Assembly: GCA_024275815.1 (NCBI GenBank)
Contig: JAJRYI010000104.1
Coordinates: 1-28,196 of the forward strand
From: Actinomycetes bacterium
GTDB taxonomy: Bacteria > Actinomycetota > Acidimicrobiia > Spongiisociales > UBA5794
Length of the DNA stretch: 28,196 bases
Direction of reading: 5' to 3'
Shown here: positions 330 to 28,183 of the stretch, piece by piece
How the letters are laid out: the number at the start of each line of letters is the position of its first letter
How positions within the stretch are numbered: the stretch's first letter is position 1
The notes under the pieces: model-generated
What the model was told of the DNA's origin: nothing
Seen by the model: the letters and a program-made list of their open reading frames with translations, nothing else
Databases searched by the model: none
Position numbers and translations under genes: made by a program

Positions 330-1231
330 CGACCCTGAGCATCCTCGTCCAGGTGGCCGCCCTGCTCACCGGCGGCGCCTACGTCCTGGTGGTGACGGAC
401 CGCCTGATGAGCAGCACGGGCGGCGTACGCTCGGCCCTCGTCTACCCCGTCAGGCGGCTGTCGTTCCTCCTCCTGCAGCCAGCAACGACGACCGAGCGGC
501 CAGATTTCGAGGCGTGGATCCTCGGTCCGGCGTTGCTCATGGCGCTCGCAGCGGTGGGTGCAGTGGCGATCCCCGTCGCAGGACCATCGGCAGGCGGCGA
601 TATCCATGCCGGACTCGTGCTCTTCGGCGCTGCGATGCTCATCGTGCTCGTCGCGGTGTTCATCTTCGGATGGGGGCCGAACTCGGTGTTCCCGATGATC
701 GGTGGATACCGGATGGCTGCCATGGTCCTCTCCGTGGGTATCCCCTTCTCCCTGGTCGTACTCACCACAGCCATCCCGGCCGAGTCGTTGTCGGTCGGGA
801 TGATCGTCGAGGCACAGTCCAGTCTGTGGTTCGTGGTGGTCCAACCGCTCGGGCTGCCCATCTACCTCGTCACGGCAGCCGCGATCGCCTTCTGGGGCCC
901 GTTCGACCTTCCTGAGGGTGCCGATCTCGCCGGCGGTGTCGTCGCTGAAGCGTCCGGCCTGAGACTGGCGATGTGGAGATTCGCACGTGCAGCGTTGCTG
1001 GTGACCCTGTCACTGATGGGCCAAGCCGTCTTCCTCGGCGGCTACCTCGGGCCGATTCTCCCCGGTTGGGCGTGGACGATCGTAAAGACGCTGGTGCTTC
1101 TGGTACTCCTGGCGCTGGCAGGGCGAACGATGGCGCGGATGCGCGTTCAGACGTTCGTCTGGTTCGGGTGGGTCGTGCTCCTGCCCCTGGCGCTGGTCGA
1201 CGTGTTCGTCTCTGGTTGGTTGGCGCTATGA
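326..1231 (+). CDS. nuoH: NuoH-like membrane subunit (divergent paralog)
   Basis: Multi-TM protein with NuoH remnants (GW..NS.FPMIGGYR, PFDLPE, GGYLGP, WTIVKT, ARMR). True start is taken as ATG 326, which overlaps the upstream stop, rather than the ORF start at 251. Confidence 0.8.
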   Translation: MTTLSILVQVAALLTGGAYVLVVTDRLMSSTGGVRSALVYPVRRLSFLLLQPATTTERPDFEAWILGPALLMALAAVGAVAIPVAGPSAGGDIHAGLVLFGAAMLIVLVAVFIFGWGPNSVFPMIGGYRMAAMVLSVGIPFSLVVLTTAIPAESLSVGMIVEAQSSLWFVVVQPLGLPIYLVTAAAIAFWGPFDLPEGADLAGGVVAEASGLRLAMWRFARAALLVTLSLMGQAVFLGGYLGPILPGWAWTIVKTLVLLVLLALAGRTMARMRVQTFVWFGWVVLLPLALVDVFVSGWLAL

Positions 1232-1794
1232 ACCCCGGGCCCCTGTCCTACTTCCTCGTATCGGCGTTCGGTGTCGGAGCCGTGGTCTCGGGCTGGCTGG
1301 TGTTTCGCACGGACTCCATGCTGCGAGCCGCTTACTGGCTCATGGTCTCGTTCGTAGCGGTCGGAGCCATGCTGATCGTCCTCGATGCCCAGTTCCTCGG
1401 GCTGATCCTCATCCTCATGATGTCGGGGGAGATGACGATCATGGCGATCTTCATGATCCTGTTCATGATGAACCCTGCAGGGTTGAACCCGATGACCATG
1501 GTTCACCAGCACCGGACATCGATCATCGCGGGCGTGGGATCCTTCGTCGTCCTCGCCTTCGTCGGAGTCGTTGCCGAGTTCCCGGACCGCCCGGTACCAG
1601 CAGGCGACGCAACGGTCGCGCTCGGCGAGGAGTTGCTCGGACGCTCGATGCTCGTCTTCGAGTCGGCCGGCGTGGCGCTCCTGGCCGTCATGATCGGAGC
1701 CATCGCCCTGGCGGCGAAGCAGGGCCGTTTCGGCGATGCATATGACGGATCACAGGAGCCGAGCATCGACGTCGAGACGGAGGACCGATCATGA
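1228..1794 (+). CDS. nuoJ: NuoJ-like membrane subunit (divergent paralog)
   Basis: ATGA-coupled start at 1228. About 5 TM helices, C-terminal LGEELLGRSMLVFESAGVALLAVMIGAIALA typical of NuoJ, located between H-like and K-like genes. Confidence 0.8.
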   Translation: MNPGPLSYFLVSAFGVGAVVSGWLVFRTDSMLRAAYWLMVSFVAVGAMLIVLDAQFLGLILILMMSGEMTIMAIFMILFMMNPAGLNPMTMVHQHRTSIIAGVGSFVVLAFVGVVAEFPDRPVPAGDATVALGEELLGRSMLVFESAGVALLAVMIGAIALAAKQGRFGDAYDGSQEPSIDVETEDRS

Positions 1795-7554: not shown

Positions 7555-7590
7555 TGACCTGTACCGATGCCGGTTCGCAAAGGAGAATCC

Positions 7591-8589
7591 GTGAAACGCC
7601 TCGCTGTGCTCGCTCTCGTGGTCGCTGTGACAGCGGTCGCCTGTTCCGCTGGGGGTGGCGGCGACGGACTGACGTTGTACTCGGGAAGGTCCGAAGACCT
7701 GGTCCAGCCTCTCATCGACCGGTTCACCGAGGAAACGGGCATCGAGGTCACGGTCAAGTACGCGGGTTCCGCCGACCTCGCCGCGACGCTCAGTGAGGAA
7801 GGCACCGGGTCTCCTGCAGACGTCTTCTTCGCTCAGGATCCGGCATCTCTCGGAACGGTGGCGCTCGCCGGTCTCCTCTCCCCGTTGCCGACCGATGTTC
7901 TTTCGAAGGTCCCGGAACGCTTCTCTGATTCCCAGGGACGATGGGTGGGGACCTCGGGGCGTGCCAGGGTCGTCGTATACGACTCGACCGCCATCGACCC
8001 GGGTGATCTGCCCGAGACGGAGGACGGGTTCACCGACCCACAATGGCGTGGCCGCGTCGGTATCGCCCCGACCAACGGATCCTTCCTCTCGTTCGTATCG
8101 GCCAAGATCCTCGTCGACGGCGAGGACGCCACGCTTCGTTGGCTCGAGGGGATGGCGAACAACGCCTCACCGACGTTCCCGAAGAACTCTGCGATCGTGG
8201 CTGCCGTCAACGATGGACAGATCGAGGTGGGCCTCGTGAACCACTACTACCTGCTGCGGGCACTCGCTGAGTCTCCCGACCTTCCCGGAGCCAACTACTT
8301 CTTCGAGGTCGCAACCCCGGGCTCTCTCGTGATGCCGGCCGGCGTTGGGATCCTCGCCTCCTCGGACAAGCAGGAGTCGGCGAAGAAGTTCGTCGAGTTC
8401 CTTCTCAGCGATGAGTCCCAGTCCTACTTCGCCACCGAGACGTTCGAGTATCCGCTCGTCCCCGACATACCTGCCAGCGAGCTGCTCCCACCCCTCGAGA
8501 CGATCCCGACACCCGATGTCGACCTCTCGATGCTGGCAACAGTTCTCGACACCGCTACCGATCTCGTCGCCCAAGCCGGACTCCTGTGA
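7591..8589 (+). CDS. fbpA: Fe3+ ABC transporter substrate-binding lipoprotein (FbpA/FutA/SfuA family)
   Basis: GTG start after AGGAG, lipobox AVAC, LYSGRSE, ADVFFAQD, GLVNHYY (tandem Tyr iron ligands), FEYPL. Confidence 0.85.
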   Translation: MKRLAVLALVVAVTAVACSAGGGGDGLTLYSGRSEDLVQPLIDRFTEETGIEVTVKYAGSADLAATLSEEGTGSPADVFFAQDPASLGTVALAGLLSPLPTDVLSKVPERFSDSQGRWVGTSGRARVVVYDSTAIDPGDLPETEDGFTDPQWRGRVGIAPTNGSFLSFVSAKILVDGEDATLRWLEGMANNASPTFPKNSAIVAAVNDGQIEVGLVNHYYLLRALAESPDLPGANYFFEVATPGSLVMPAGVGILASSDKQESAKKFVEFLLSDESQSYFATETFEYPLVPDIPASELLPPLETIPTPDVDLSMLATVLDTATDLVAQAGLL

Positions 8590-10223
8590 CAGACCCGGCG
8601 TCCGTCGTTGACGTCGAGCTCATCGCCGGGACTCCGGGGGCGGCTCCAGGAGGCGTATCGGACGCCGGACGATCGGCTCCCTGGTGGCTCTGGGTCGGTG
8701 CCCTCACCGTGCTCCTCCCCGTGGGTCTTCCCGTTCTGTTCCTGTTCCTGCGAGCGGCAGGGGCAACAGATGCCGCCTGGGATACGCTCATGTCGATTCG
8801 CACGGTGCAGTTGGTCGCAAGGAGTTTCCTTCTCACCGCTGTCGTGACGGCATCGGCGACGGCAGTCGGGGTCACGGGGGCGTGGCTGCTCGCACGCACC
8901 GACCTCTCCTTCAAGCGAGTGTGGGGGATCGTCTTCGCCATGCCTCTCGTCGTACCGTCCTACGTGTTGGCGATGGTGTTCATCTCTGCGACCGGCCCCC
9001 GGGGCCTGTTCGCCGATATGACAGGCATCACCCTCCCCCACCTCATCGGTCTCCCGGGTGCATGGCTCGCGTTGACGATCACCACCTACCCCTACGTCTA
9101 TCTCATCACGGCCGCAGCCATCCGCAAGATCGACCCCGCCCTCGAGGAGGCCGCCCGCGGTCTCGGTGCAACACCGACCCGGGTGTTCCGAACCGTGATC
9201 CTTCCCCAACTTCGCCCGGCGATCGGGGCGGGTGCGCTGCTGGCCGCCTTGTACACGCTGTCGGACTTCGGAGCCGTCTCTCTCATGCGATTCGATGCTT
9301 TCACCCGCGTCATCTACGCCCAGTACTCCGGTCGCCTGGATCGCACACCGGCGATCGTCCTGTCGATCGTGCTCATCCTCATCGCCTCGGTCATCATCTG
9401 GGGTGAGCAGCGCACACGCGGGAAGGGCAAGTACTTCTCGCGGTCGGTGACACGCCCCCCGACGCTGTACCGGCTCACCGGGCCGCAACGCATCGCAGCG
9501 ACATCGGCCATGGCGATCGTCGCCGGGATAGGGGCGATCATCCCGGTCGCCGTGCTCGTGTCGTGGGTCGTGCGTGGCGTGCGAGCCGGCTCCGACACTT
9601 CGGTCTCATGGAGCGCCGTTGGTGGATCGCTGACCGCGGGCACGATCGCAGCCGCACTCGCAATGGCCGCAGCGATCCCGATCGTCATTCTCGCTGTCCG
9701 GTTCGCGTCCCGTTCGACCCGCTGGCTCGAACGCGGCGTGTTCGGCCTCTTCTCGCTCCCCCACATCACGATCGCCATCGCCGTCGTCGCCTTCACCGTT
9801 CGCTACACACGGCCCGTGTACCAGTCGCTCCTGGTACTCGGACTCGTGTACGCAGCGATGTTCCTGGCACAAGCGACATCAGCAGCAAAGGCCGCGTTGA
9901 TCCAGGTCAACCCTGCCCTCGAAGACGCCTCTCGGTCCCTCGGACGGGGCCCGATCGCTACCTACGTGAAGGTGACGTTCCCCCTCATGGCGAAGGGGTT
10001 GCTCGCCGGTGGAGCACTCGTCTTCGTGACGACACTCAAGGAACTCCCCGCCACGCTGCTTCTGAGCCCTCCGGGGTTCACGACGCTTGCCGTAAGAATC
10101 TGGGCTGCCGCAGACGAACTCCTCTACACGAGGGCGGCAGCATCCGCTCTGCTCCTCATCGCCGTTTCGATCGTTCCGGTCTACTACCTTTCGATCAAAC
10201 CAAAGGACGCCCTCGACACATGA
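8586..10223 (+). CDS. fbpB: Fe3+ ABC transporter permease (FbpB/SfuB family)
   Basis: Duplicated permease with two EAA loops (ALEEAARGLG, ALEDASRSLG), SDFGA and LKELPATLLL motifs. GTGA overlap with fbpA. Confidence 0.85.
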   Translation: MTDPASVVDVELIAGTPGAAPGGVSDAGRSAPWWLWVGALTVLLPVGLPVLFLFLRAAGATDAAWDTLMSIRTVQLVARSFLLTAVVTASATAVGVTGAWLLARTDLSFKRVWGIVFAMPLVVPSYVLAMVFISATGPRGLFADMTGITLPHLIGLPGAWLALTITTYPYVYLITAAAIRKIDPALEEAARGLGATPTRVFRTVILPQLRPAIGAGALLAALYTLSDFGAVSLMRFDAFTRVIYAQYSGRLDRTPAIVLSIVLILIASVIIWGEQRTRGKGKYFSRSVTRPPTLYRLTGPQRIAATSAMAIVAGIGAIIPVAVLVSWVVRGVRAGSDTSVSWSAVGGSLTAGTIAAALAMAAAIPIVILAVRFASRSTRWLERGVFGLFSLPHITIAIAVVAFTVRYTRPVYQSLLVLGLVYAAMFLAQATSAAKAALIQVNPALEDASRSLGRGPIATYVKVTFPLMAKGLLAGGALVFVTTLKELPATLLLSPPGFTTLAVRIWAAADELLYTRAAASALLLIAVSIVPVYYLSIKPKDALDT

Positions 10224-11239
10224 ACGATCCCCTGATATCGGTGGAGAACGTCTCCGTCTCGTACGGTGACGCAGGTGCCCTCGATGACTTCTCACTCGAT
10301 GTGGCCCAGGGGTCACTCGTGGCGCTCGTTGGGCCGTCTGGATGTGGCAAGACCACAGCACTGCGCGTCATCGCCGGGTTCCAGCACCCCGATGAGGGAA
10401 AGGTGACGATCCACGGAACCGTCGTCGTCGGCAACGGAAAGGACGTGCCGCCCGAGAAGCGCAACGTCGGCATGGTGTTCCAGGAGTACGCCCTCTTCCC
10501 ACACATCTCGGTCGCAGAAAACGTCGGGTACGGCGTGCGCGGCGCAGACCGGATTCAACGGGTTCATGACGTCCTCAAGCTCGTCGGCCTCGAGCATCAC
10601 GGCTCACGGTTCCCCCACGAGCTCTCAGGTGGCGAACAGCAGCGGGTCGCTCTCGCCCGAGCACTTGCTCCACAACCCGACGTCGTCCTTCTCGACGAGC
10701 CCTTCTCGAACCTCGACGCTCCACAGCGCGAACGTATGCGCAGAGAACTCCGCAAGATCCTCAAGGGAGCCGGGGCTACGGCGGTGTTCGTGACACACGA
10801 CCAAGCCGAGGCTCTCGCGATCGCAGACGTGATCGCGATCATGCGTGACGGGAGGATCGTGCAGTTCGGCATCCCGGACGATGTGTACGCCGAGCCTGTC
10901 GATCCGTGGGTCGCCCGATTCCTCGGCGATGCCATCCTGCTGTCCGGTGTGGTCCAGGATGGACATGTCGCAACGATCCTCGGCAGCATCGATACCCGGC
11001 TGCCTGCAGGGTCGCATACAGACGTCATGATCCGTCCCGAGTGGATCTCGCCGCGGATCGATCCCGATGGCCGTGGCAAGGTCGTCGACCGGGAGTTCTA
11101 CGGGCACGATCAACGTGTCGAGATCGAGTTGCCCGGTGGTGAACGTATCGAAGCGCTCGTGCCGACCGCGAACCGGATGACGGTCGGCGACCGCGTCGAC
11201 CTCGAGATCGTGGACGCCATCGTGTGGGAGAAGAAGTAG
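10220..11239 (+). CDS. fbpC: Fe3+ ABC transporter ATP-binding subunit (FbpC/SfuC family)
   Basis: Walker A GPSGCGKT, signature LSGGEQQR, Walker B LLDEPF, H-loop VTHD, C-terminal TOBE-like region. ATG 10220 overlaps the permease stop. Confidence 0.88.
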   Translation: MNDPLISVENVSVSYGDAGALDDFSLDVAQGSLVALVGPSGCGKTTALRVIAGFQHPDEGKVTIHGTVVVGNGKDVPPEKRNVGMVFQEYALFPHISVAENVGYGVRGADRIQRVHDVLKLVGLEHHGSRFPHELSGGEQQRVALARALAPQPDVVLLDEPFSNLDAPQRERMRRELRKILKGAGATAVFVTHDQAEALAIADVIAIMRDGRIVQFGIPDDVYAEPVDPWVARFLGDAILLSGVVQDGHVATILGSIDTRLPAGSHTDVMIRPEWISPRIDPDGRGKVVDREFYGHDQRVEIELPGGERIEALVPTANRMTVGDRVDLEIVDAIVWEKK

Positions 11240-11339: not shown

Positions 11340-12791
11340 CTAGTTGCCCGGCAGGCCCCAGGTGTCGGTAGGTGACGTGGGACCACCGTCGGGCTCGTCA
11401 TCCGGGTGAGGCTCGTCCGCCTGTTCGGGTTCGTCGCTGGGCGGCTCGGTCGTGCCACTGGAGAAGCTGATGTCGTCTGGCAGCGGGGATGCATCGTCCA
11501 TCTGTTCGTCTTCTTCGTCCTCCGCCTCGACTGGCTCTGCAGCAACCTCCGGTTCCGCCTGCGGAGCGAGTGGGGGCTCCCAGTCGGGGGGGACGGTCGG
11601 GGCAACGATCAGGCTCTCCGGAAGGAGTGCAACCGGCACCGGGTCTGCCCGCCGTGTGGCGATTGCACCGAGGACCCAGGCGCCGGTGCCCCACACGAGA
11701 CCGATCACGTAGACGACTCCGCCAACGACCGGGATGAGCCAGATACCGAGACGCCAGATGACTGCACCAACGAGGAAGGCCCCGAAGAGTCCGCCTCGTT
11801 TGAGCAGGATCCGGTTGCCGAGCACCGTCACCGCGGGTATCGGGCCGATGATGAACAGTGCAATACCGACGAGCACCAGGAGCACCGCGAGCGGAATGCC
11901 GACGAGCGTGACGGCGAGGAGGGCGACACCCGCCGGCAACACGACGACCGTCACGAATCCGATGAGGAGTGACCGTATCGGGCGGGTCACGAGCGCAGCG
12001 GCTGCCCGCGTGCTCGAGCCCCGCAACACGGTGAGCACGACGATGCCGGCAACGAGGAAGCCGAAGAAGCCGATGACGTTGGCTAGGGCAAGGATGATCC
12101 CGTAGACGAAGTTGCTCTGGGTTGGGAGGCGGGTCGTCGTTCCACCGATGGCCGCGGTCGACGCTATCCCTGCTTCGACGGGGGAGCGGTACAGGACGTC
12201 ACCCTCGATCATCGCCGTGGGTCCAAGCTCGAGTTTCTGCGTCGCCACATCGAGATCTCCCCCGACGGTGCCATCGACGACGAGTCGCATCGTTCGTCCG
12301 CGGACGTCGCGTTCGACGACGCCCTCGATCCGCCCCGTCCCCGCGAAGATCATCGCATCCCTGCCGATGATTCCGGACGGCGTCACGACGACCGATGGGG
12401 CCGTGAGGAACACGTCGTCACCGACCTGCCCGCCGATCGTGGCGCTCACGGCGGTGCCTCGTAGTGATCCATCTATTCGACCGGTCGGTTCGACGACGAC
12501 GGATCCAGAGGAGAACACGGTCACCGTCCCCGTCACCGTCCCAGAGATCGTCAGGTCACCGGTGAAGATCACGAGGTCACCGTCGATGACACCGTCGATC
12601 TTGCCGGACATGGACGTGACGTAGACGTCCTCATCGACCGGATCGTCCTTACTGACGATGAACAGGTCGGTCGTGACGAGAGACGCGAACGTCGTGATCG
12701 ACGGGATCACGACGGCGAACACACCGATCAGCGCCAGAGCGAGATGTCTGGCTCTCGGGGATGGATTCTGATCAGAAAGGAAGTGCGTCAC
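11340..12791 (-). CDS. Bactofilin-like (polymer-forming cytoskeletal-type) beta-helix membrane protein with acidic Pro-rich tail
   Basis: N-terminal hydrophobic segment, about 8 imperfect G-x-(I/V)-x-G-D-(V/L) repeats, a multi-TM block and an acidic P/E/D-rich C-terminus. The start (GTG 12791) is uncertain and overlaps the nuoN stop. Confidence 0.6.
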   Translation of the reverse strand: MTHFLSDQNPSPRARHLALALIGVFAVVIPSITTFASLVTTDLFIVSKDDPVDEDVYVTSMSGKIDGVIDGDLVIFTGDLTISGTVTGTVTVFSSGSVVVEPTGRIDGSLRGTAVSATIGGQVGDDVFLTAPSVVVTPSGIIGRDAMIFAGTGRIEGVVERDVRGRTMRLVVDGTVGGDLDVATQKLELGPTAMIEGDVLYRSPVEAGIASTAAIGGTTTRLPTQSNFVYGIILALANVIGFFGFLVAGIVVLTVLRGSSTRAAAALVTRPIRSLLIGFVTVVVLPAGVALLAVTLVGIPLAVLLVLVGIALFIIGPIPAVTVLGNRILLKRGGLFGAFLVGAVIWRLGIWLIPVVGGVVYVIGLVWGTGAWVLGAIATRRADPVPVALLPESLIVAPTVPPDWEPPLAPQAEPEVAAEPVEAEDEEDEQMDDASPLPDDISFSSGTTEPPSDEPEQADEPHPDDEPDGGPTSPTDTWGLPGN

Positions 12792-14250: not shown

Positions 14251-15821
14251 CAGCCCTCACCTCCCTCGTGCTCGCCGGTATCGACAACGCCGTACTCGGG
14301 CACGATCACATCACCGGGCCGAGAGAACTCGGGAGCCTCGTACTGGGTGACCGCTTCGATCCGGTCGAGAACCAGCTCGATCGACGGTTCGATACGATCG
14401 AACACCGGCTTCGGATACACCCCGATGCCGAGGATGAGGACGATGAGCGGAACCATGATCAGGATCTCCCGAAAGTTGAGGTCGCGCAGCGCCTCGACCT
14501 TGGGGTTGACCTCACCGGTGAAGACGCGTTCGTACGCCCAGAGCAGGTAGATCGCAGCGAGGATCACCCCGGTTGCAGAGATGATCGCCAACACCGGGAG
14601 GGTGAAGTACGAACCCATGAGGATCGTGAACTCGCCGACGAAGCCCGACAGGCCGGGAAGACCGGCAGAAGCGAAGGCGGAGAAGAGGAAGATCCCTGCA
14701 AAGACGGGCATCACCTTGGCCAGGCCGCCGTAGTCCGCGATCTTCCTCGTGTGTGTCCGATCGTACACCATGCCGACGAGGAGGAACAGGGCGCCCGTCG
14801 TGAGGCCGTGGCTGATCATCTGGAACACCGAGCCCTACATCGCCTGGCTGGTGAGCGCGAAGATACCGAGGACGATGAAACCCATGTGCGACACCGACGA
14901 GTACGCGATGAGTCGCTTGAGGTCGGGCTGGACGATCGCCAACGCAGCACCGTAGATGATGCCTATGACACCGAGCAACGCGAGCCAGAACCCGAACTCG
15001 ACCGTCGCCTCGGGGAACAGGGACAGGTTGAAGCGCAACAAGCCGTAGGTGCCCATCTTGAGCAACACACCGGCAAGGATCACTGATCCAGCCGTCGGTG
15101 CCTCGGTGTGGGCATCAGGCAGCCACGTGTGGAACGGGAACAGCGGGACCTTGATGGCGAACGCTATGGCGAACCCGAAGAACAAGAACGTCTCCGTCGT
15201 ACGGGTGAACTCCACTCCGAGCATGTCGCGGAAGTCGAACGACGCGAGGGCGCCGACACTGTCTCCGGTGATGATGCCGAGGGCGATGATGGATGCGAGG
15301 AGGAACGCCGACCCGAAGGCTGTGAAGAGAACGAACTTCATCGAGGCGTACACCCTGTTCTCCGAACCCCACATTGCAATGAGCAGGTACATCGGGATGA
15401 GCACGATCTCGAAGAATGCGAAGAACACGAGCAGGTCGAGTGCGAGGAACACTCCGAGCACCCCGGTCTCGAGGATCAACATCAGCACCATGTACGTCTT
15501 GATCTTGTCCGTCACCGATCGCGACGCTGCGATCGATATCGGGAACAGCAGGGCCGTCAAGGCGACCATGAACAGCGAGATGCCGTCTACCCCCACACGC
15601 CATCCGAAACCGATGGTCGTGCTGAACGTCACGTTCTCCGCGAACTGGAAGCTGGCGTCTCCAACGGCGAAGTTCCACAGGATGTACCCGGCGACCACGA
15701 GAGGCATGAGCGACACGACGATCGCCAGTGGGTAGATCAGTTCCTGTCTCCGCTTGGGGACGAGGCCCACGATGAGCGCACCGAGCAGGGGCAGCGCGAT
15801 GAGGATGGCCAGAACGGGCAT
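14250..15821 (-). pseudogene. nuoM: NADH-quinone oxidoreductase subunit M interrupted by one in-frame TAG (codon 329, 14835-14837); apparent pseudogene, read-through gene or base error
   Basis: ORFs 14835-15821 and 14250-14828 share a frame: FALTSQAM*GSVFQMISHGLTTGALF. Joined length is 523 codons with all NuoM motifs (FFEIVLIP, IKVPLFPFHTWLP, LLKMGTYG, GFVGEF). TGATG overlaps at both ends. Confidence 0.9.
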
Positions 15822-17697: not shown

Positions 17698-18003
17698 CTA
17701 CCCCTTCATCTCCGCGAGCTCATCGACGTTGGCACTCACCCGTCGCCGGAAGATCGCGATGATGATCGCAAGCCCGACCGTGACCTCGGCGGCTGCGACG
17801 ACCATGACGAACAGGGCTGCGACCTGGCCCTCGATGAGACCGAGCTCTTTGCTGAGTGCAACAAAGGTCAGGTTCACCGAGTTGAGCATCAGCTCGATCG
17901 ACATGAACATCACGAGCGCGTTGCGTCGAATGAGCACGCCACCGACACCGATCGAAAAGAGTGCCGCGGCAAGCAGCAGGTACCAGGTGATCGTCACCGT
18001 CAC
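17698..18003 (-). CDS. nuoK: NADH-quinone oxidoreductase subunit K
   Basis: [31 protein letters not shown]. Confidence 0.93.
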
Positions 18004-18530
18004 AGCACCGCCTCCTCATCCTCGACCTCGTGTCCGAAGTACGCAAGGGCGATCGTCCCGACCGCCGCGATCGTCAGCAGCATCACCGTCGCGAGAAACA
18101 CCACGGTCCACGTCCCGAACAACTCGTCTGATACGTTCTCGATCGTTCCGTTGAGGTTCGGTGTGCCGAAGGCGTCGCTGCCGGTCACCCATGCTGCCCT
18201 CCCGGCAAGCGCGATGGATGCGAACAAACCGACCGACACGACTGCCGTCATGATCCGTTGTGCTGGAACGGCAGGTCCGTACGCGTCGGGCTTGTCGACA
18301 CCGATGAGCATGATCACGAACAGGAACAGGGTCATGACGGCACCGGCGTAGACGATCACCTGGACGATCGCGACGAAGTGTGCATCGAGGAGCACGTACA
18401 TCACCGCGATGGAGAACATCGTCGAGAGCAGACCGATCGCCGAGTAGACGGGGTTCTTCGCGGCAACGATCGCGATCGCGCCGACGAGGGCTACGGCAGC
18501 GAAGATGATGAAGACGATCGTCTCAGCCAT
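18000..18530 (-). CDS. nuoJ: NADH-quinone oxidoreductase subunit J
   Basis: Start MAETIVF at ATG 18530 with AGGAGG upstream. [26 protein letters not shown]. Confidence 0.92.
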
Positions 18531-19182
18531 CGGCCTTTGCCTCCTGGGGGTCTTCGGTTGTGTCGCTGTGAGCACTCTGGCCTGTCTCCGCAGGGAGGTT
18601 CCCGGTGCGCGCCGACGGCGTCCACGCCACGACCCCTTCATAGGCTGCCCGCCCAGCTGGTGACGTCGCTCGCATCCAGCCATCACCTGCGACGAGCTCG
18701 CCGCGGTCGATGAGGTTGGATGCAGGCTGGGGGTGTCTCGGTGTTCCGTCCGGCTCCACGAGGAGCTCATCTTTGGTGAAGATCGCCTAGTCTCGGTCCG
18801 TGACGGACATCTCGAAGAGGTGTGTCATCGTGATCGCCGTCGTCGGGCATGCTTCGACGCACATGGCGCAGAAGATGCACCGCAACATGTTGATCTCATA
18901 GACGAACCCGTACCGCTCCCCCGGACTCACCGGTGCGTCCTGCGGGTTGTCGGCACCCCGAACGTAGATGCAGTTCGCCGGGCACACTCCTGCGCACAGC
19001 TCGCATCCGATGCACTTCTCCATGCCGTCCTCGTACCGGTTCAGGACGTGCCTGCCGTGGAACCGCTGTGGCTTGACACGCTTCTCCTGGGGGTACTTGC
19101 GCGTCACACGCGGCCTGCCGACCTGGCGCATCGTGACCGCGAACCCTCTGAAGGGGCCGAGAAGATCTGCGAACCAACTCAT
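18523..19182 (-). pseudogene. nuoI: NADH-quinone oxidoreductase subunit I interrupted by one in-frame TAG (codon 132, 18787-18789) after both 4Fe-4S motifs
   Basis: ATG 19182 with AGGAGG. RFHGRH, CIGCELCAGVCP, CIFCAMCVEACP, then FEMSVTDRD*AIFTKDELL. The frame continues to TGA 18523-18525, which overlaps the nuoJ start. Confidence 0.88.
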
Positions 19183-27565: not shown

Positions 27566-28183
27566 ATGAAGGATCCGATCCCGGAATCGACCGTCGCGAG
27601 GCTGCCTCGCTATCTGCGCTGCCTCTCGGACATAGCAGTCAGCGAGGCGAAGTGCTCCTCGGAGGAGCTCGCTGAGGCCGCGGGCGTCAACAGTGCTCAG
27701 ATCCGCAAGGACTTCTCGTACCTCGGGGCGTACGGAACCCGTGGTGTCGGGTACGACATCGCCGACCTCTCCAGTCAGATCCGCACCGTGCTCGGCCTCA
27801 CCCGAACGTACCCCGTCGTCATCGTCGGGGCAGGAAACCTCGGAAATGCCTTGACGAACTACGGGGGGTTCCGGGCATGGGGGTTCGAGATCGTCGCCGT
27901 CGTCGACATCGACCCGAACAAGGTCGGTCAGCCAGTCGATGGCCTGACGATCGAGCCGATGCATGATCTCGTGAGGATCGTCGACGACAACTCGATCGAG
28001 ATCGGGATCATCGCCACACCAGCATCCGCAGCCCAAACCACCGTCAACCGCCTGGCCGACGCCGGGGTCACATCGATCCTCAACCTCGCCCCGATCATTC
28101 TCAAAGCCCCCGACGGTGTCCAGATCCGCCGCGTCGACCTATCGACCGAACTCGGCATCCTCGCGTATCACCGGAACACCTAA
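27566..28183 (+). CDS. rex: Redox-sensing transcriptional repressor Rex
   Basis: IPESTVARLPRYLR, SSEELA..AGVNSAQIRKDFSYLG.YG.RGVGY, Rossmann GAGNLG, AG(V)TSILNLAP. Confidence 0.95.
   Translation: MKDPIPESTVARLPRYLRCLSDIAVSEAKCSSEELAEAAGVNSAQIRKDFSYLGAYGTRGVGYDIADLSSQIRTVLGLTRTYPVVIVGAGNLGNALTNYGGFRAWGFEIVAVVDIDPNKVGQPVDGLTIEPMHDLVRIVDDNSIEIGIIATPASAAQTTVNRLADAGVTSILNLAPIILKAPDGVQIRRVDLSTELGILAYHRNT

Follow-up and report, generated by a model that had tools for sequence, protein, structure and literature searches.

The window analyzed here, which is the whole of a 28,196-nt contig, begins on its plus strand within a run of genes for proteins that resemble the membrane subunits of respiratory complex I (Table 1). 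The upstream end of this run lies on another contig of the same assembly, C288, which ends where the window starts and carries the gene for a small YHS protein, the NuoA-like gene A2, and the region encoding residues 1–313 of BD2, a cap protein in which NuoB-like and NuoD-like parts are fused. Across the two contigs, the order of the module is YHS, A2, the fused B/D cap, H2, J2, K2, L2, M2, and N2, in which genes overlap at their stop and start codons, as at the junction of BD2 and H2 (ATGA). The part of BD2 encoded in the window is 72% identical to residues 320–425 of the 426-aa G007 protein. For H2 and the YHS protein, longer starts (at 251 and at a GTG codon, respectively) were considered and rejected, and the two reading frames were taken from 326 and from the Met residue that precedes KDP(V/I)C.

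Table 1. Coordinates of the module genes and of the features within J2 (positions in the window unless another contig is named)
Feature	Coordinates	Strand	Basis
BD2 (fused NuoB/NuoD-like cap), last 108 aa	3..329	+	weak PF00346 match
H2, NuoH-like, 301 aa	326..1231	+	PF00146, 3.4e-43
J2, NuoJ-like, 188 aa, carrier of the Met stripe	1228..1794	+	PF00499, 4.8e-20, 72 bits (cut-off 33)
J2 TM3, residues 55–79, with invariant M64, M65, E68, M69, M72, M76	1390..1464	+	AlphaFold2 helix limits, conservation
J2 Met-dense 32-aa stretch, residues 64–95, 9 Met	1417..1512	+	translation, density scan
J2 post-TM3 loop, residues 80–94, with invariant M80, M81, NPAGLNP, M89, M91, H93	1465..1509	+	AlphaFold2 model, conservation
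K2, NuoK-like, 100 aa	1791..2093	+	PF00420, 1.8e-18
L2, NuoL-like antiporter subunit, 637 aa	2093..4006	+	PF00361
M2, NuoM-like antiporter subunit, 493 aa	4012..5493	+	PF00361; TIGR01972, 501 bits
N2, NuoN-like antiporter subunit, 475 aa	5527..6954	+	PF00361
YHS protein, 49 aa	contig C288, 21 nt upstream of A2		PF04945, 3.4e-13

Gene order, antiporter residues, and redox parts of the module

The order of the A, cap, H, J, K, L, M, and N genes was identical in all of the 80 related loci, where the contig was long enough, and N2 was the final gene of the module in every locus of sufficient length. Genes for NuoC, NuoE, NuoF, NuoG, and NuoI were not found in the module at any related locus.

The cap protein joins two halves that distantly resemble NuoB and NuoD, and its NuoBCD score was 30 bits, where the cut-off is 1156. 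No Cys column was conserved among 77 copies of the cap, and 21 of them contained no Cys residue at all. In this genome, the cap has one non-conserved Cys residue in the N-terminal part and none in the C-terminal part, unlike the canonical NuoB encoded in the same window, which shows the usual four Cys residues. The latter belongs to a complete canonical nuoA–N operon of 14 genes on the minus strand, including those for NuoE, NuoF, NuoG, and NuoI. The genome also contains a third nuo-like cluster.

The charged residues for proton translocation in L2, M2, and N2 are invariant and align with the conserved Lys, Glu, and His residues of the canonical subunits. These are E128, K206, H231, H315, K319, K373, and E374 in L2, D135, K220, K251, and E403 in M2, and E107, K248, and K389 in N2. 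The intact pump residues of L, M, and N, together with the disappearance of the redox ligands, indicate that the pump has been kept and that every recognizable electron-transfer site has been lost. The idea, put forward in the preliminary description, that L, M, and N may power a cation conduit in J and K fits both of these features.

In addition, J2, H2, A2, L2, N2, and the cap missed the NCBIfam equivalog cut-offs for Nuo subunits, which M2 and K2 did not. H2 scored 133.6 against a NuoH cut-off of 305, and the best score of J2 was 48.8 bits against a NuoJ cut-off of 174, all eight NuoJ models remaining far below their cut-offs. L2 also scored below all of the MrpA cut-offs; L, M, and N resemble MrpA/MrpD.

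We regard it as highly improbable that the module is still a redox enzyme, that is, a second respiratory complex I with an unrecognized electron donor or cofactor. Such an enzyme would agree with the PGAP annotation of the module genes on plasmid records, where they are named as NADH-quinone oxidoreductase subunits, and with the retention of several channel acidic residues in H2. However, the ligands of the N2 cluster are missing along with NuoI, C, E, F, and G, the cap stands far from the NuoBCD cut-off as given above, and the genome is already served by the full 14-gene nuo operon in the window, in addition to the third nuo-like cluster.

The Met stripe of J2 and its surroundings

Translation of the Met-dense stretch of J2 reproduced exactly the 32 residues quoted in the preliminary description, and the nine Met residues counted there are present, at segment positions 1, 2, 6, 9, 13, 17, 18, 26, and 28, as are the three MxxxM motifs. 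The probability of at least nine Met residues in 32 is 1.8e-8 at the Met frequency of this genome (2.16%) and 3e-6 at a frequency of 4%, and no other 32-aa segment among the 3102 ORFs with 150 aa or more in the assembly is as dense in Met. Base composition was rejected as the source of this richness, because ATG is disfavored in a genome with a GC content of 63% and because L2, M2, N2, and H2 are Met-poor (1.9–2.8%).

An AlphaFold2 model of J2 (57-row alignment, pLDDT 84) contained helices at residues 5–25, 31–51, 55–79, 95–115, 128–139, and 141–164, with five TM helices. TM3 corresponds to residues 55–79 and the following loop to residues 80–94 in this model, so that TM3 and its end account for seven of the nine Met residues, and the loop contains M89, M91, and H93. 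In a Foldseek search with the model, significant matches were limited to NuoJ, ND6, and NdhG chains, the best being 8qby_J, 8e9i_J, and 7p63_J. The Pfam matches of J2 consisted of PF00499 only, with no domain of the known Cu(I) transporters (CusA RND, CTR1, and P1B-ATPase).

On a helical wheel, M65, M69, M72, M76, and M80 (segment positions 2, 6, 9, 13, and 17), for which a common helical face had been claimed, fell inside an 80-degree arc (80–160 degrees), with Glu68 at 40 degrees, at the edge of the arc. The stripe extends from the middle of the membrane to the cytoplasmic end of TM3, covering the cytoplasmic half only, and no periplasmic exit path from it was identified. The M-S-G-E sequence of J2 aligns on the Y-A-G-A sequence of the canonical NuoJ encoded in the same window (18000–18770, minus strand), in agreement with the replacement that had been noted; M65 thereby takes the place of the canonical E-channel Tyr, and E68 that of the last Ala. 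Across the Met-stripe J family, the TM3 motif is M-(A/S)-G-E, and the canonical Tyr-Ala/Val-Gly-Ala is absent.

In 121 homologues with 64–94% identity, M64, M65, G67, E68, M69, M72, M76, M80, M81, M89, and M91 were invariant, and the NPAGLNP motif, V92, H93, and Q94 were likewise unvarying. In 83 operon copies with 51–89% identity, from hosts among the Actinomycetota, Gemmatimonadota, Acidobacteriota, Gamma- and Alphaproteobacteria, and 'delta' MAGs, the stripe Met residues, E68, and H93 were 100% conserved. At position 78, where J2 has Leu, Met was found in 89% of the relatives. The HQH sequence reported after the stripe is present in J2, but only its first residue, H93, is family-invariant; at least 90% of the family have Q94, and position 95 is variable (N, R, P, and others).

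The representatives of 50% clusters kept the Met pattern to about 35–45% identity, below which ordinary NuoJ proteins with Y-(A/V)-G-(A/G) were found, and the divergent members P0133, P0134, and P0150 had lost several Met residues while keeping E68 and H93. Two unpublished genomes, G027 and G038, gave hits of the canonical type only and underlie none of the conclusions. Because the stripe Met residues were invariant in the 121 homologues and the 83 operon copies, a free exchange of Met for Leu or Ile, on which the preliminary description would have been abandoned, was not seen. Judged from these sequence comparisons, the Met stripe is a conserved hallmark of the J subunit of a cofactor-free relative of complex I.

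Family-invariant Met residues were confined to A2, J2, and K2, and they lie 1–6 residues from a channel Glu. In complex I, the E-channel bundle is built from these three small subunits. For A2, the invariant or near-invariant residues are H50 and H56 in the TM1–2 loop, M62, M71, M73, and M76 around E72, and M94 and M96. For K2, which retains both channel Glu residues, they are M28, M30, and M31 before E34 and M66 and M69 before E72. For J2, they are M31, the TM3 stripe around E68, M89, M91, H93, M141, and M155. In total, A2, J2, and K2 contain about 20 family-invariant Met residues and three invariant His residues, and where these Met residues stand, V, I, L, A, or F is found in the canonical subunits. 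Several of the Met residues are spaced by 3, 4, 7, or 8 residues from a retained channel Glu in either direction, and therefore lie on the same helical face as this Glu.

In complex I, TMH3 of ND6 is a mobile helix with a gating role, located on the hydrophilic axis, and the TMH3–4 loop of ND6 and the TMH1–2 loop of ND3 adjoin the quinone site, where the arms meet (PMC10036122). From its helical phase and by homology, the stripe would face the central axis of the module. The loop of residues 80–94 in J2 is predicted to be cytoplasmic and to adjoin the cap protein, its side being assigned from the position of the ND6 TMH3–4 loop at the quinone site; by the same homology, the Met and His residues of this loop would meet the cap at the cytoplasmic face, as would the His residues in the loop of A2.

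An explanation without metal, to which we give little credence, is that the Met residues serve the plasticity of TM3, in its alpha-to-pi-bulge rotation, or act as an oxidant sink, and that the link to copper described below arises through other parts of the module or through shared regulation. The mobility of TM3 in ND6 (PMC10036122) would suit this explanation, Met is both flexible and hydrophobic, and the canonical TM3 already has one or two Met residues. However, the absolute invariance of nine to ten Met residues across phyla, with no Leu or Ile, is unexpected for a merely hydrophobic role, and the explanation does not account for the matching invariant Met residues around the Glu residues of A2 and K2 or for the invariant His residues in the adjoining loops.

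Copper genes and candidate operators at the module loci

A metal-related neighborhood, which the preliminary description had anticipated, is present: the YHS gene is directly upstream of the module in this genome, and copper genes recur around the related loci. The ORFs around 80 loci were clustered, the representatives were identified with Pfam, and the counts were made on the 70 loci whose flanks spanned 3 kb or more. The core copper genes were defined as those for YHS, CsoR, CopB, multicopper oxidase, P1B-ATPase, DUF326, and cupredoxin proteins. At least one of them was found within the ~10-kb flanks of 46 of the 70 loci, and one besides YHS in 28 of the 70; the YHS gene was directly upstream in 29, and 24 showed no copper gene with the queries used. 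The same queries matched ~13 places in the present 2.1-Mb genome, corresponding to ~0.06 expected per locus. These counts are descriptive and overstate the support, because loci from related organisms are not independent.

The recurrent flank families comprised YHS proteins, CsoR-family repressors, multicopper oxidases, CopB, HMA-bearing P-type ATPases, DUF326 Cys-rich four-helix proteins, and cupredoxins. In addition, an RND pump, a two-component system, ArsR-family regulators, and EgtD (in Halomonadaceae only) were found.

Species-representative genomes contained the module in at least 574 places, and 32 plasmid records carried it, among them those of plasmids from Mycobacterium avium, Rhodococcus, Arthrobacter, and Halomonas; the plasmid copies sit in copper or heavy-metal islands. 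On plasmid 1 of Arthrobacter sp. FB24, genes for a sulfocyanin-like protein and a multicopper oxidase precede the module, the latter directly upstream and in the same orientation. On pMAH135 of M. avium, genes for a MerR regulator, a P-type ATPase, and an HMA protein are located near the module. Many of the hosts are marine or halophilic, and soil, plasmid, and clinical-isolate carriers (Arthrobacter, Rhodococcus, and M. avium) occur as well.

About 75 nt upstream of the YHS start, an inverted repeat of 9+9 bp with G-tracts (ACCCCACCC/GGGTGGGGT) stands before the −10-like sequence TGTGATATCC, and this arrangement of the palindrome and TGTGATATCC is conserved upstream of YHS in the relatives. 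Operators of CsoR are G-tract pseudopalindromes, with the consensus ATATACCCCTNAGGGGTATAT in streptomycetes (PMC3902906). The palindrome before the operon is therefore a candidate operator of the CsoR type. Sites of the form TACCC-N-GGGTA precede operons of csoR, YHS, and the module in three loci (L026, L032, and L037); in L079, which lacks YHS, such a site precedes csoR, which is itself directly upstream of the module.

Within the genus of the present organism, two genomes contain a gene for a CsoR protein with the Cys-His-Cys ligand motif. No such CsoR was found in this assembly, which is 80% complete. The sole CsoR-family gene found in it, on contig C196, was rejected as the copper sensor of the operon; the gene product has a CstR-like Cys..Cys pattern, and the gene adjoins one for a rhodanese.

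The J subunit itself carries further putative metal-binding elements in the relatives. His/Cys/Met-rich C-terminal tails were found on J2 in 44 of the 49 loci without YHS and in 4 of the 33 loci with YHS. In a sister J subfamily, one to six HMBD (PF19335) domains are present on J, and in P0224 the HMBD is located on the C-terminal tail. Since the rich tails occur chiefly in loci without YHS, and HMBD domains in the sister subfamily, these results suggest that YHS, His-rich tails, and HMBD domains are three solutions that can stand in for one another in bringing a metal-binding element to the cytoplasmic side of J.

The same copper context would also be expected if the module handled copper without exporting it through J2, as a Cu(I) importer or loader of cuproenzymes, as a membrane sink that sequesters copper, or as a proton or ion pathway gated by copper, with the stripe serving for sensing; we consider this group of functions rather unlikely. 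The multicopper oxidase gene directly upstream of the module in Arthrobacter sp. FB24 would suit the loading of a cuproenzyme, and the restriction of the stripe to the cytoplasmic half of TM3, with no exit path found, is also consistent with a role other than export. Against this, CsoR-type control and the nearby resistance genes for CopA, CopB, multicopper oxidase, and RND proteins typify detoxification, a cytoplasmic location, as in exporters, is predicted for the His-rich tails and HMBD domains (on the C-terminal tail in P0224), and the three intact antiporter modules favor energized transport over sensing.

For the hard cations, a precedent is the 'partial NDH-1 operon 2' of Salinispora, a membrane-only set of seven genes, nuoA/H/J/K/L/M/N, in which 'NuoJ' was annotated as hypothetical (Penn and Jensen, 2012; PMC3314556). 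This operon has spread horizontally among Actinobacteria and marine Proteobacteria and was read as a Na+/H+ pump for marine adaptation (PMC3314556). Matched by description rather than by sequence, it very likely represents the same family as the present module or a sister family. Copper, the Met lining, and the cap protein are not noted in that account, and in the open literature we found no paper that links the operon of the present module to copper.

The corresponding reading of the present module, as an Mrp-like Na+(K+)/H+ antiporter or ion pump for salt or marine life in which the Met residues are a structural peculiarity of the clade, appears improbable to us. In addition to the Salinispora proposal, it would agree with the many halophilic or marine carriers and with the resemblance of L, M, and N to MrpA/MrpD. 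Hard cations, however, take oxygen ligands rather than thioethers, the soil, plasmid, and clinical carriers (Arthrobacter, Rhodococcus, and M. avium) are not marine, and the YHS protein, the HMBD domains, the His-rich tails, the candidate CsoR operators, and the copper islands would all be left unexplained.

A proposed proton-driven Cu(I) exporter in relation to known systems

Taken together, the comparisons make it somewhat probable, in our judgment, that the module is an exporter of Cu(I), and possibly also of Ag(I), which is driven by the proton motive force and has a Met-lined central channel. Copper export by means of the proton gradient is probable because the module has no electron-carrying parts and is encoded among copper-handling genes in many bacteria. 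The role of J and K as a soft-metal conduit, as suggested in the preliminary description, gains support from the invariance of the Met residues and from the metal-related neighborhood, a support that is comparative throughout; on the same basis we infer metal binding, transport, its direction, and its stoichiometry.

In the proposed mechanism, the small YHS protein, with three Cys residues and one Met residue, would collect Cu(I) in the cytoplasm, and the His-rich tails or the HMBD domains fused to J would take over this role in relatives. Cu(I) would then be passed to a site at the interface between the cap and the membrane, in the region of the former quinone site, which may be formed by the post-TM3 loop of J2 (M89, M91, and H93), the TM1–2 loop of A2 (H50 and H56), and the conserved His and Met residues of the cap. 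From there, Cu(I) would move on thioether ligands that re-line the former E-channel, namely the TM3 stripe of J2 and the Met residues around E72 of A2 and around E34 and E72 of K2.

Protons passing through L2, M2, N2, and the channel glutamates, including the new E68 of J2, would drive this movement, so that the coupling of complex I would run in reverse, in an Mrp-like manner. Expression of the exporter operon would be controlled by CsoR. Several protons per Cu(I) could provide an energy comparable to that of ATP hydrolysis, and for this reason so large a machine may be used.

With confidence that falls a little short of even, we further propose that the module represents an additional class of bacterial copper efflux system beside the P1B-ATPases and RND CusCBA: a cofactor-free derivative of complex I with ~9 subunits, in which several protons are exchanged against one Cu(I), the E-channel is lined with Met residues, and the quinone chamber has become a metal-loading site.

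If the exporter proposal is correct, the module would be an unrecognized and widespread determinant of copper/silver resistance, which surveys of copper resistance miss because its genes are annotated as ordinary 'NADH-quinone oxidoreductase' subunits. For bioenergetics, it would amount to a natural experiment, in which the coupling residues are intact, the redox module is absent, and the central channel carries a heavy and spectroscopically visible ion. The disputed coupling step at the E-channel and ND6 TM3 could then become directly observable, and the long-range coupling of complex I would prove to be detachable from redox chemistry and able to drive the transport of a soft metal.

Compared with the membrane arm of complex I, the module shares the subunit folds and the gene order (NuoA, H, J, K, L, M, and N, corresponding to ND3, 1, 6, 4L, 5, 4, and 2), and it keeps the channel Glu residues of A and K and the Lys, Glu, and His residues of L, M, and N. 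Conversely, it lacks the NADH, FMN, and Fe-S modules, its NuoB and NuoD counterparts are fused and have no conserved Cys residue, and the Tyr-Ala-Gly-Ala sequence of TM3 is changed to Met-Ser/Ala-Gly-Glu.

The Mrp antiporters (MrpA–G) are, like the module, redox-free members of the same superfamily with NuoL/M/N-like and NuoK-like subunits, and they exchange a cation for protons. Whereas the module has NuoH-, NuoA-, and NuoB/D-like subunits, Mrp instead has MrpE, F, and G; furthermore, Mrp moves Na+ or K+ at oxygen-ligand sites, without a Met lining or a link to copper genes.

In the RND protein CusA and in CTR1, transmembrane thioether clusters and MxxxM motifs carry Cu(I) and Ag(I), and CusA is driven by the proton gradient. 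The likeness of the module to these transporters would be a functional analogy in Met and MxxxM chemistry only, since J2 has no kinship with them in sequence or fold, and the subunit architecture is different.

Nuo-type gene sets of the genus

Contig L097 of the same assembly, which holds the head of the copper-linked operon, also carries the start of a third complex I-like cluster, running divergently from the YHS operon. The genes of this cluster comprise a NuoA-like gene (175 aa), one ORF without assignment, NuoC (234 aa), NuoD (394 aa), and the 5' portion of NuoH. The same third cluster, with K and L, is present in G007, the genome of a relative with a related module. Its presence in both indicates that there are three Nuo-type gene sets in this genus.

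In the canonical set of the window, an in-frame TAG between ...LTSQAM and GSVFQM... splits nuoM into two ORFs in the same frame. A fault of sequencing or assembly in this metagenome-assembled genome could account for the stop; alternatively, the main complex I could have a genuine pseudogene at nuoM. The gene for a Rex-type redox-sensing repressor adjoins canonical nuoA in divergent orientation.

Features of the window and of two further contigs of the same assembly
Feature	Location	Strand	Remarks
ABC importer genes	window 7567-11239	+	immediately 3' of N2
Bactofilin-domain protein, 483 aa	window 11340-12791	-	placed after canonical nuoN
In-frame TAG in canonical nuoM	window 14835-14837	-	ORFs 15821-14835 and 14828-14250
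Rex-type redox-sensing repressor	window 27566-28183	+	Put_DNA-bind_N and CoA_binding domains
Second conserved GC hairpin, YHS 5' UTR	L097 (contig C288) 1452-1500	-	CGCCGC...GCGGC/GCGGTG
Third complex I-like cluster, start	L097 (contig C288) 2688-5865	+	
CsoR-family repressor and rhodanese-like gene	L100 (contig C196) 3339-4073		

Variation in J2-like proteins and the cap

For the divergent J2-like proteins P0133, P0134, and P0150, several of the stripe Met residues are replaced by Leu, Val, or Thr, and E68, the NP.G loop, and H93 are retained. The three proteins may belong to a subclade of their own, with a different substrate or a function in decay. In addition, a cluster of cap-like proteins (rank 15 in the protein cluster search) has an HMBD in 95% and Complex1_49kDa in 82% of its members. 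Metal-binding domains may thus be fused to the cap, too, in the sister family, a tentative lead in view of the score of 0.81.

Genes and signals flanking the module

For the importer that follows N2, the solute-binding protein matches SBP_bac_8/6/11, and PhnS/SfuA-like weakly, under the cut-offs; the other parts are a double permease of 545 aa and a TOBE_2-containing ATPase. Candidate substrate classes are the iron(III), phosphonate, and thiamine types. An ORF of 341 aa, of a size that would suit a solute-binding protein, likewise lies 3' of N2 in G007. In Halomonadaceae loci (L049, L051, L052, L057-L059, L063, L068, and L071), the gene for an EgtD-type histidine methyltransferase (PF10017) comes after N2, together with adjacent genes, and this is a hint of a connection between the copper module and the synthesis of thiol-histidines of the ergothioneine type.

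At the head of the operon, the GC hairpin of the YHS 5' UTR is placed between a putative -10 box and a strong Shine-Dalgarno sequence (AAGGAGG). On L100, the CsoR-family repressor has a Cys..Cys pattern without His, which is CstR-like, and the adjoining rhodanese-like gene has a CxGGxR motif. The two genes look more like a pair for the sensing of persulfide than like a copper sensor.
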